This document shows positions 2,546 through 3,927 of a stretch of 7,125 nt of DNA, in pieces. Source of the DNA: a virus. Taxonomy: Monodnaviria; Loebvirae; Hofneiviricota; Faserviricetes; Tubulavirales; Inoviridae. The stretch's first letter is position 1. Each line of letters opens with the position of its first letter. The translations under genes and the position numbers were made by a program. The notes beneath the pieces are model-generated. The model did no database searches. It had not been told where the DNA came from and saw nothing but the letters and a program-made list of their open reading frames with translations. Location of the stretch: IMG/VR virus record IMGVR_UViG_2675903606_000001; one strand, 5' to 3'.

Positions 2546-3598
2546 ATGATCGACTGGTTTACCGGAATTCTTCCTTGCACACACCGACCGTTACCGGCCG
2601 GTAGTGTCGTCAGCGTTGATGCTGACGGTGCAGTGGAGTGGGAAACAGTAAAGCGGTTGACCGTTCGCGGTTCATACGAATCCACAATGAAAGTACGATC
2701 TGTTGGATCAGACGGGGAGGGCCGGGCAACTCATCTTTATATTGACGGAAATCCGTCAAAATTTCTTCAGGGGCATTCTGTTATTGGCTCCGATGATTTG
2801 CAGGGGCTGGTATTAACCGCTTACGCAAGAATATTGGCATTACTTCATATTCCTCATGATCTACCATCCTATCGTCAGGTAATGGCAGGGCAATTTAAGA
2901 TCTCACGCATTGATATTAACTACATGTATTCATTATCAACGCTGGAAAATGTCCGCGCATGGCTATATGCCGCAGAATTCAAGGCTAAAACTCGCCATGG
3001 TCGCGCCTGTGGTAAAGGTGGAACTGTTTACTTAGGGAAAAACTCCCGGCGGTGGAGCCTGAAATTTTATTCAAAATATGATGAGCATATTTCTGGTAAA
3101 AAAGGACACCAGATAGCAGAAGAGTTTGTTAAAGCTGGCTTACTTGACTGGTCTAAAGATAAATTACGAATTGAATTGACGCTAAGAACAACAGAATTAA
3201 TTGACTTAAACCTTACGCTTGGCAGTAACTGGAATATCGATACTCCAAACAAATTATTCTCTGAATATGTAGGGAGAATAGAAATGAATCAAAATGCCAT
3301 TTTGACCGATGAAAAAATAGTTAAACTGCCGAGAAAAATACAATCAACATATTTACTGTGGAAGCAGGGCGCAAACATGAAAGAAATGCTTCCAAAGCCA
3401 ACATTTTACAGGCACCGAAAAGAATTATTGTCTTTCGGGATAGATATTAATTTTTATTGTGAATCCCCTGATTCAAATAATGTTGTTCCATTAGTAAGAA
3501 CACTTGAAGCTAAACCAGCCCAAATCCCTACATGGGTTTATGAGAAAGGTTTTATTTTTGATTACAACCGTATTTCACATGCCAGTAACTGGCATTAA
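2546..3598 (+). CDS. gII: Rolling-circle replication initiation protein, filamentous-phage gene II family (350 aa)
   Basis: Motifs shared with M13 pII as recalled: KFLQGHSVIGSDDL vs KVLQGHNVFGTTDL; ISRIDINY vs ISRIDATF; C-terminal NNVVPLVR identical. Position divergent from the repressor and upstream of the virion genes. Shorter than Ff pII (410 aa). Confidence 0.85.
   Translation: MIDWFTGILPCTHRPLPAGSVVSVDADGAVEWETVKRLTVRGSYESTMKVRSVGSDGEGRATHLYIDGNPSKFLQGHSVIGSDDLQGLVLTAYARILALLHIPHDLPSYRQVMAGQFKISRIDINYMYSLSTLENVRAWLYAAEFKAKTRHGRACGKGGTVYLGKNSRRWSLKFYSKYDEHISGKKGHQIAEEFVKAGLLDWSKDKLRIELTLRTTELIDLNLTLGSNWNIDTPNKLFSEYVGRIEMNQNAILTDEKIVKLPRKIQSTYLLWKQGANMKEMLPKPTFYRHRKELLSFGIDINFYCESPDSNNVVPLVRTLEAKPAQIPTWVYEKGFIFDYNRISHASNWH
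3284..3598 (+). CDS. gX: Nested in-frame gene X homologue (C-terminal 104 aa of gII product; replication regulator)
   Basis: Internal in-frame ATG at 3284 preceded by GGGAG (3272-3276) with 7-nt spacing; product begins MNQNAILTDEK…, comparable to the M13 pX start (MNIYDDSAVLDA…), and ends with the conserved NNVVPLVR region. Confidence 0.55.
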   Translation: MNQNAILTDEKIVKLPRKIQSTYLLWKQGANMKEMLPKPTFYRHRKELLSFGIDINFYCESPDSNNVVPLVRTLEAKPAQIPTWVYEKGFIFDYNRISHASNWH

Positions 3599-3609
3599 AG
3601 GAGCGTGAT

Positions 3610-3927
3610 ATGTCTAATTATGGTCTTTTTGTAAAAGGTAAAATGCTTGGTGCTCGTCAGCGTAATAAAGTCAATGGTCAGGGCTATTACAATGAAATTG
3701 GTATCGGTTTAGAGATCCCTGATGGTTTTGGCGGTACTAAGCAAGACCAAATAATTATTCGTGTATCACAGTCCCTTGTGAACGCCGGAGTCATGAATCA
3801 AGCCAATAGTTTTACGGGGAAATTAGTTCAAATCCCTGTATATGTTCGTGTCTGGTCAATGGAGGGTAGAGAAGGTGTGACTTATAATATTTCATCAGAT
3901 GGTGGGATCACTGAAATAAAAGGTTAA
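3610..3927 (+). CDS. Putative ssDNA-binding protein (gene V / RstB position), 105 aa, no evident similarity to Ff pV
   Basis: Strong RBS AAGGAG (3598-3603) 6 nt upstream of ATG; sits immediately after gII and before gVII exactly where gene V lies in Ff phages. Function assigned by synteny only. Confidence 0.55.
   Translation: MSNYGLFVKGKMLGARQRNKVNGQGYYNEIGIGLEIPDGFGGTKQDQIIIRVSQSLVNAGVMNQANSFTGKLVQIPVYVRVWSMEGREGVTYNISSDGGITEIKG

Follow-up and report, generated by a model that had tools for sequence, protein, structure and literature searches.

Among the described systems closest to the phage considered here is the UPφ group of prophages. Shapiro and Putonti (2020, Virus Evol, PMC7307601) present UPφ901 and related prophages, including that of ECONIH2, as relatives of Lineavirus that lie in tandem at dif, with genes II and V more than 85% identical to those of Ypfφ and all other genes below 20%. 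The same text explains this "modular split" by past recombination and proposes that the phages I2-2 and IKe descend from an integrating ancestor. Here we analyse a 7,125-nucleotide (nt) stretch of inovirus DNA (IMG/VR record IMGVR_UViG_2675903606_000001), which we call the window. It covers the greater part of a single copy of a filamentous prophage of Escherichia coli that is integrated at dif and repeated in tandem. It is 99.8% identical to a prophage of E. coli SCPM-O-B-12142 (locus L001), of which two copies stand in tandem, repeating every 9,078 bp. This array adjoins ydeS/ydeR/ydeQ/ydeP, and an exact dif site borders it on the right (L001 17163-17190).

Our analysis indicates that this phage is, very probably, a two-part chimera: a replication and lysogeny backbone of the CUSφ/Ypfφ kind carries a virion and assembly cassette of the Lineavirus (I2-2/IKe) kind, the two being joined between gV and gVII and again after the packaging signal. 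The module split itself is already published in substance for UPφ (PMC7307601). What our analysis seems to add is the position of the junctions at both cassette ends to the base pair, the recurrence of the junction together with the incongruence between gII lineage and virion type, a type of chimera that lacks the UPφ genes h1 and h2, and a predicted fold resembling that of single-stranded-DNA-binding proteins (SSBs) for the Pfam family PF17426.

The junction between gV and gVII

The comparison that carries this reading is with NC101, an E. coli genome of the class that is about 88% identical to the window in gII-gV and that carries a CUSφ-type prophage. The left arm of that prophage is as in the window, while its virion genes are quite different and encode a membrane protein, a 520-amino-acid (aa) protein, a DUF2523 protein, a Zot-family protein and GspD. 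In blastn the window is 97% identical to NC101 over positions 1-180 and 90.6% identical over 1383-3935 (2,554 nt), with nothing beyond. At the protein level the 140-aa open reading frame (ORF) of the left arm is 95.7% identical, the helix-turn-helix (HTH) protein 98.6%, gII 95.4% and gV 96.2%, while the products of gVII to gI have no BLASTP match in the NC101 prophage. Ypfφ in Yersinia pestis, which we recovered by scanning a genome collection with the gII alignment, repeats the pattern: its gII and gV products both match the window's at 96% identity and its HTH protein at 99%, whereas its virion genes, which agree with their NC101 counterparts at 98-100%, show no similarity to the window's.

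The change is abrupt. Similarity to CUSφ/Ypfφ stops at 3935, 8 nt past the gV stop codon, at the end of a common junction text that consists of the stop codon TAA, a "tt" spacer and the ATGGAT that begins the next gene (window 3925-3935); from 3933/3963 on the window resembles only I2-2 and IKe. In the full prophage copy the CUSφ/Ypfφ-like segments (8462-9190, 1-180 and 1383/1849-3935) and the I2-2/IKe-like segment (3933/3963-8410) tile without overlap. The latter ends in a hairpin after gIV that is the counterpart of the I2-2 "morphogenetic signal", and the second join lies just after this packaging signal, outside the window. A contrast of this size between the two blocks of genes goes far beyond what chance would give, and the sequence comparisons support the gV|gVII boundary as a real recombination junction, at which a replication and lysogeny arm meets a virion arm that has another ancestry. 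This is the boundary that a first-pass annotation, made from the letters of the window, had suspected, and the per-gene comparison it proposed does separate the two blocks, gII and gV being 95-96% identical to those of CUSφ/Ypfφ and gVII to gI resembling those of I2-2/IKe. A chimera produced by sequence assembly was considered and is ruled out, since the architecture recurs both between the tandem copies and across several complete genomes.

For the right arm, the proteins of M13, IKe, I2-2 and If1 were compared gene by gene with those of the window, by BLASTP and by global alignment, and the identities in this paragraph are of amino acids. The virion genes are clearly nearer to I2-2 and IKe than to M13. 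Against M13, IKe and I2-2 in turn, pI is 53-55%, 65% and 63% identical; pVIII 43-47%, 58-61% and 59-61%; pVI 37%, 51-52% and 52-53%; pIII 28-30%, 54-56% and 53-55%, with 47% to M13 over the 94 aa that take in the Pfam Phage_Coat_A match; pIX 26-31% (E 0.03), 55-57% and 48-50%; and pVII 33%, 64-67% and 68-70%, where the M13 value comes from global alignment only (z 5.2), there being no BLASTP match. The order gVII-gIX-gVIII-gIII-gVI-gI(-gIV) is collinear with I2-2/IKe, each product encoded in the window being 48-70% identical, and pIV, encoded outside the window, is 71-73% identical to I2-2/IKe (73% to I2-2). The statement of the first-pass annotation that the virion proteins align readily with those of M13 thus goes too far for pVII and pIX, whose M13 matches are marginal; and the module that it called Ff-like is Lineavirus-like, Ff being a more distant relation. 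Megablast of the whole window against phage records gives only a 421-nt match in gI to I2-2, so that searches with protein sequences and against E. coli genomes had to follow.

Could the contrast arise with no exchange at all, if gII and gV had merely evolved faster than the virion genes from an Ff-like ancestor? Small DNA-binding proteins do often evolve fast, and gII is still a homologue of Ff/IKe gII that has the same Pfam domains and a BLASTP match at E 3e-7. However, such heterogeneity of rates is at odds with an identity to CUSφ/Ypfφ that drops from about 90% to undetectable within a few nt of the gV stop codon, with a gII tree that conflicts with virion type at a bootstrap of 100, and with a gV that belongs to another Pfam family than Ff gVp and gives no profile signal to it. 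The sharp breakpoints, which recur in several complete genomes, refute this explanation, and we give it almost no credence.

gII, gX and the gV-position protein

Both gII and the ORF that follows it lie, according to the ORF list, where the first-pass annotation had placed them. It had described gII as diverged from Ff, and this is so: the protein is 24% identical to that of M13 over 321 aa (E 3e-7), 22% (BLASTP) or 26% (global alignment) identical to that of IKe, and 57% identical to that of I2-2. It is nevertheless, by sequence, a distant but clear homologue of Ff/IKe gII. PF05144 covers residues 1-231 and PF05155 (G2P_X_C) residues 253-335, and the same two families are found in the gII products of I2-2 and IKe (E from about 1e-20 to 1e-78 over the three proteins, the window's included). 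By homology, then, gII is a rolling-circle replication initiator. Within it, gX would start at M247 (nt 3284), an ATG that follows GGGAG and a methionine that is invariant in the gII alignment; gX coincides with the G2P_X_C domain, and I2-2 has an annotated gene X at the same position.

The gene in the gV position begins 12 nt past the gII stop codon. Its 105-aa product belongs to PF17426, "Putative G5P" (1.6e-51, 173 bits against a gathering cutoff of 25), as does the annotated gene V product of I2-2 (88.6 bits), to which it is 41-42% identical. The gVp of M13 and of IKe are instead PF02303 proteins (1e-42 and 2e-23), a family that gives no match to the 105-aa protein at E up to 0.1. No match was found to the gV products of M13, IKe or If1 either (for M13 no BLASTP match and a global z of -1 to -2), and hhalign, comparing a 33-sequence profile of the gV family with an Ff gV profile of only 7 sequences, gave a probability of 0.2%, that is, no signal. 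The gVp of If1 was left out of the Ff profile since it would not align with the Ff proteins. The absence of any visible likeness to Ff pV, on which the first-pass annotation had built part of its case, therefore stands: the homology to Ff gV that would have spoken against its proposal was detected neither by Pfam nor by hhalign.

What, then, is this protein? It comes from a small family: clustering at 50% identity gives 39 clusters in a set of 1.84 billion representatives. An AlphaFold2 model (predicted local distance difference test score 89.6) has the canonical order of the oligonucleotide/oligosaccharide-binding (OB) fold, β1-β2-β3-helix-β4-β5. Foldseek finds 98 matches in the PDB at E ≤ 0.001, the best at 3.5e-5, and the best 50 of these 98 are SSBs except for one OB-fold subunit of an RNA-editing complex. 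The best fold matches overall are cellular and phage SSBs and PriB, and BFVD yields phage SSBs; no Ff gVp is among the top 50-60 fold matches listed. A search of PDB sequences with the gV-family profile returned nothing significant, the best being PrgE at E 0.11. From the predicted structure we infer that the 105-aa protein is an SSB-like OB-fold protein that would fill the role of gV.

The same family occurs elsewhere with a different partner. In Inovirus D_HF2_82 (positions 5120-6612 of L012) a gV of the PF17426 type with 36% identity to that of the window lies after a gene that carries the annotation "replication initiation factor" and that tblastn with the window's gII did not recover, so that the PF17426 gV family appears to pair also with other replication initiators.

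Recurrence of the exchange

Of the complete E. coli genomes, 5,426 in number, 160 contain the gII-gV block, in two classes of about 88% and about 80% identity, and 54 contain the Lineavirus-type cassette. The junction recurs outside the pair of arms seen in the window. When I2-2 is set against IKe, similarity begins at I2-2 4465, just past the end of gV (4462). Similarity between ECONIH2, which is of the UPφ type, and a prophage of Brenneria whose virion cassette is CUSφ-like breaks off 4 nt short of the gV stop codon. Between the window and the contig L015 it ends, again, at 3935. On that 3.9-kb contig, which was binned as part of an Aerococcus metagenome-assembled genome (a label that looks like a binning artefact), positions 1571-2990 encode a gII 94% and a gV only 66% identical to the window's, and the next gene is different again; the disparity suggests that gV may be exchangeable alone.

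A neighbour-joining tree of gII nucleotide sequences has two clades. Clade A holds the window and A20 with the Lineavirus cassette, NC101, Ypfφ and a Klebsiella spallanzanii prophage with the CUSφ cassette, and L015; clade B, at a bootstrap of 100, holds ECONIH2, ZYB62 and L016 with the Lineavirus cassette and the Brenneria prophage with the CUSφ-like one. In gII the window is 88% identical to CUSφ and 80% to the ECONIH2 type, and Brenneria is 92% identical to ECONIH2 and 79% to NC101. Since both virion types occur in each clade, gII lineage does not track virion type. Counting the difference between I2-2 and IKe, the tree would require at least two exchanges, and three are probable.

One could hold instead that a single ancient exchange, the one seen in I2-2 and IKe, explains everything, and that the prophage is a vertically inherited, integrating relative of I2-2 to which CUSφ/Ypfφ are irrelevant. 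I2-2 shows the same junction against IKe, an integrating ancestor of the two phages is proposed in the passages of Shapiro and Putonti cited above (PMC7307601), and the operon as a whole matches I2-2 evenly, at 41-68% identity. Uniform identity to one phage is what the first-pass annotation had named as evidence against a mosaic, and formally I2-2 provides it; the observation does not discriminate, however, because I2-2 carries the same mosaic, with the same junction relative to IKe. A single exchange does not account for CUSφ-type cassettes that sit on gII and gV nested inside both gII clades of Lineavirus-cassette prophages, so that at least one further exchange, and probably two, would be needed. 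Nor does it account for the immunity gene of the window and the 82-aa ORF after gIV, which are of the CUSφ type, where the UPφ type would have a 60-aa ORF and h1/h2. We regard this explanation as very unlikely.

Several points weigh against the two-part chimera that we prefer. Among E. coli relatives with the Lineavirus cassette there is no identity step at gV|gVII, identity being flat at 80-87% from gII to gI, and there is none against I2-2 (gII 57%, gV 41%, pVII to pI 48-68%), so that the pairing of this replication module with the Lineavirus cassette could be old and vertically inherited in the I2-2/UPφ lineage. The Ff gV profile is small. The assignments of the origin, of single-stranded DNA (ssDNA) binding and of packaging-signal recognition all come from homology and predicted structure. 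Finally, either of the two arms may have been the one that moved.

How might such a chimera work? Its first arm would be the CUSφ/Ypfφ backbone, made up of an attP-like dif hairpin, a cargo slot, the 140-aa membrane protein, a candidate origin, the HTH repressor, gII/gX and gV, together with the 82-aa ORF that follows gIV outside the window. Its second arm would run from gVII to gI and on, outside the window, through gIV and the packaging-signal hairpin, as a cassette related to Lineavirus and more distantly to Ff. By analogy with the roles of their Ff and I2-2 counterparts, gIIp would nick the origin and drive rolling-circle replication and gXp would modulate it. The 105-aa SSB-like protein would coat the plus-strand DNA in place of an Ff-type gVp, and this coated DNA would pass to assembly proteins for which the packaging signal of their own cassette is the only one recognised. 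Since the origin would stay linked to gII, and the packaging signal to the genes for assembly, there is no need for the arms to co-evolve, and exchanges at their boundary would be viable and recurrent.

We would go one step further, tentatively and with rather less than even confidence. The site between the gV stop codon and the next start codon, together with the site after the packaging signal, may be a recurrent exchange point at which dif-integrating inoviruses of Enterobacterales swap virion cassettes, and with them receptor specificity, on one backbone. The window would then be an undescribed third combination, a CUSφ/Ypfφ backbone complete with repressor and 82-aa ORF under a Lineavirus cassette, and the PF17426 gV an SSB-derived, non-orthologous replacement rather than a diverged gVp.

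A boundary known in the literature only at gene level thus gains base-pair coordinates, and it has been used more than once. If our reading is right, relatives of Ypfφ and CUSφ, which are associated with plague and with extraintestinal pathogenic E. coli, can change their virion cassette and keep the arm for replication, immunity and integration. A change of cassette probably alters receptor and host range, which bears on the spread of these prophages and their cargo genes. The general view of filamentous-phage evolution is unchanged, exchange of the replication module being already described for UPφ in the text we cite (PMC7307601).

Features of the element and its closest relatives

The window opens with three reverse-strand ORFs, which are followed by the forward operon. 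Table 1 lists the features; Pfam backs the assignments of gII, gV, gVII, gVIII, gIII, gVI and gI.

Table 1. Positions of genes and predicted elements in the window, with the support for each.
Feature	Position	Strand	Product	Support
attP-like region	83-180	+		two inverted dif-like sites; DNA fold
Hypothetical cargo ORF	190-1314	-	374 aa	
Predicted membrane ORF of the common backbone	1407-1829	-	140 aa	
Two adjacent hairpins, the first a candidate plus-strand origin	1872-1918	+		I2-2 conservation; inverted repeat; DNA fold
HTH (Cro/CI-type) putative repressor	1928-2374	-	148 aa	Pfam HTH_3 1.4e-9; Phage_CI_repr 1.9e-4
Candidate operator/promoter	2420-2476	.		inverted repeat with 27-nt arms; promoter-like site
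gII	2546-3598	+	350 aa	Pfam PF05144 2e-72; PF05155 6.9e-33
gX (in-frame internal start in gII)	3284-3598	+	104 aa	
gV-position ORF	3610-3927	+	105 aa	PF17426 1.6e-51
Module junction	3928-3935	+		end of CUSφ/Ypfφ similarity (blastn end points; aligned junction sequences)
gVII	3930-4016	+	28 aa	gVII/gIX stretch: Pfam Inovirus_G7P_2 3.5e-11
gIX	4016-4111	+	31 aa	
gVIII (major coat protein)	4141-4383	+	80 aa	Pfam Phage_coatGP8 6e-21
gIII (attachment protein)	4430-5689	+	419 aa	Pfam G3P_pilus-bind and Phage_Coat_A
gVI	5689-6030	+	113 aa	Pfam DUF5455
gI (Zot-family assembly ATPase)	6031-7125	+	364 aa	Pfam Zot 1.2e-38

At the left end, inverted dif-like sites at about 86-113 and 155-180 flank a G+C-rich stem at about 120-150. 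One site reads GGTGCGCATAA...TTATGTTGAAA and the site on the opposite strand reads GGTTCGCACAA...TTATGCTAAA; a search of the window for E. coli dif with up to 3 mismatches found none, the phage sites having diverged further. Folded as ssDNA, positions 80-185 are predicted to form a forked hairpin (-30.7 kcal/mol, z -7.35) in which sequences resembling the XerC and XerD arms pair across a bulged centre. The region is 97-99% identical to its counterpart in CUSφ/Ypfφ-type prophages.

Further in, the hairpin at 1872-1900, with a 13-bp stem, is nearly invariant across the window prophage, the CUSφ and UPφ types and the "intergenic" region of I2-2 (blastn match to L002 2666-2716, 84.6% over 52 nt; DNA fold z -5.1). 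The second hairpin, which ends at 1918, varies in sequence by lineage and keeps its stem (GTCTCA/TGAGAC against GTACCA/TGGTAC). Similarity to ECONIH2-type relatives breaks at 1913, right after the first hairpin. Over 59-1913 the window is 96% identical to ZYB62, and ECONIH2 and WL297 are 92-98% identical to it where present (about 59-180 and 1383/1406-1913). The immunity region from 1914 to 2546 is unrelated, the window having the 148-aa HTH protein and ECONIH2-type relatives a 60-aa ORF, and from 2547 on identity to Lineavirus-cassette relatives is about 83%. The breakpoints against those relatives are at 59/180, about 1383, 1913 and 2547, and those at about 59 and 1913 flank the attP-like hairpin and the hairpin at 1872-1900. 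Such a pattern is expected if hybrids arise by rolling-circle replication that runs from the origin of one prophage to that of the next in a mixed tandem array, a mode of hybrid formation given in PMC7307601, which cites Davis and Waldor 2000. Because the breakpoints fit this model, we propose the 1872-1900 hairpin as a candidate plus-strand origin; the two hairpins together may be an origin and specificity element. Upstream of gII, the inverted repeat listed in Table 1 overlaps a promoter-like site at 2456-2484 and may be an operator/promoter.

Between the attP-like site and the 140-aa ORF lies a cargo slot (about 181-1382) whose gene content varies among relatives. It holds the 374-aa hypothetical protein in the window and ZYB62, a TIR-domain protein in A20, an STM4504/CBY_0614 family protein of the same accession in one UPφ-type and one CUSφ-type prophage, the ECs_2282 zinc-binding protein and a hypothetical protein in ECONIH2, and a Doc toxin in a 7.9-kb Salmonella episome. 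PADLOC gives no match to the 374-aa protein and Pfam only sub-threshold ones (E 0.04 or worse), and the 140-aa ORF has neither a Pfam nor a PADLOC match.

Some further observations concern single genes. A 135-nt part of the HTH domain (window 2201-2335) is about 91% identical to an HTH gene beside a resolvase on about 400 mostly conjugative plasmids, for example pYDC107_41; plasmid matches to the window, most of which this stretch alone explains, are irrelevant to its mosaicism. The 60-aa putative regulator of ECONIH2-type UPφ prophages has a weak tblastn match on the minus strand of I2-2, within its intergenic region (L002 2799-2903; 43% over 35 aa, E 4e-4); a regulator gene may thus have left a trace in this phage, which is held to be non-integrating. 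In gIII, the glycine-rich linker (window about 5000-5150) appears to hold a 15-nt length difference from the 99.8%-identical genome, if its placing in the repeat region is right, and in sliding windows this region shows the lowest conservation in the operon when relatives are compared (64-76%). Two small circular "plasmids" in Salmonella and E. coli, NZ_CP140410.1 (7,938 bp) and NZ_CP128883.1 (9,565 bp), are whole phage genomes of the UPφ and CUSφ types and are probably replicative forms.

How does the window compare, feature by feature, with known systems? The likeness of its 105-aa protein to the Ff (M13/fd/f1) gVp lies in position, after gII/gX, in size (105 against 87 aa), in a presumed role in coating plus-strand ssDNA and, as far as the predicted structure goes, in being a small beta-barrel protein; the difference lies in the Pfam family and in the OB helix predicted between strands 3 and 4. 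Among XerCD-integrating elements of the CTXφ type, the plus-strand ssDNA attP of CTXφ resembles the forked hairpin predicted for the window. I2-2 is the sole phage record that matches both arms, and it shares the conserved hairpin of the intergenic region and the same junctions relative to IKe; it differs in being non-integrating, in an annotation without dif-like site, repressor or cargo genes, and in being much more diverged from the window. Stassen et al. (1992, J Mol Evol) are said to have described I2-2 as a composite replicon in which the replication module had been exchanged.

CUSφ and Ypfφ share with the prophage their integration at dif as tandem copies, the attP region (97-99%), the HTH protein (99%), gII (95-96%), gV (96%) and the 82-aa ORF after gIV (82%). 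The 140-aa ORF, 96% identical in the NC101 prophage, was not found in the Y. pestis locus. They differ from it in the whole virion and assembly cassette, pIV being only about 27% identical.

With UPφ, finally, the prophage shares the core order gII-gV-gVII-gIX-gVIII-gIII-gVI-gI-gIV, tandem integration at dif, a dif-like site at the genome start followed by three reverse-strand ORFs, a virion cassette of 83-87% nucleotide identity, and gII and gV close to Ypfφ with the other genes close to I2-2/IKe. It differs in gII-gV, where nucleotide identity is only about 80% and the gII clade is the other one, and in its immunity gene, which encodes the 148-aa HTH protein and not the 60-aa ORF of the UPφ type. 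It differs also downstream of gIV. PMC7307601 names two UPφ-specific genes, h1 and h2, as common to all UPφ viruses. With the ECONIH2 ORFs that we equate with them by position, tblastn finds these genes in the relatives L006, L008, L009, L016 and L040 and not in the source prophage or A20 (L007). In their place the source prophage (L001 16534-16782) and A20 carry the CUSφ-like 82-aa ORF. Lacking h1/h2 and having a repressor and an 82-aa ORF of the CUSφ type, the prophage represented by the window is thus a chimera distinct from the published UPφ901/ECONIH2 type.

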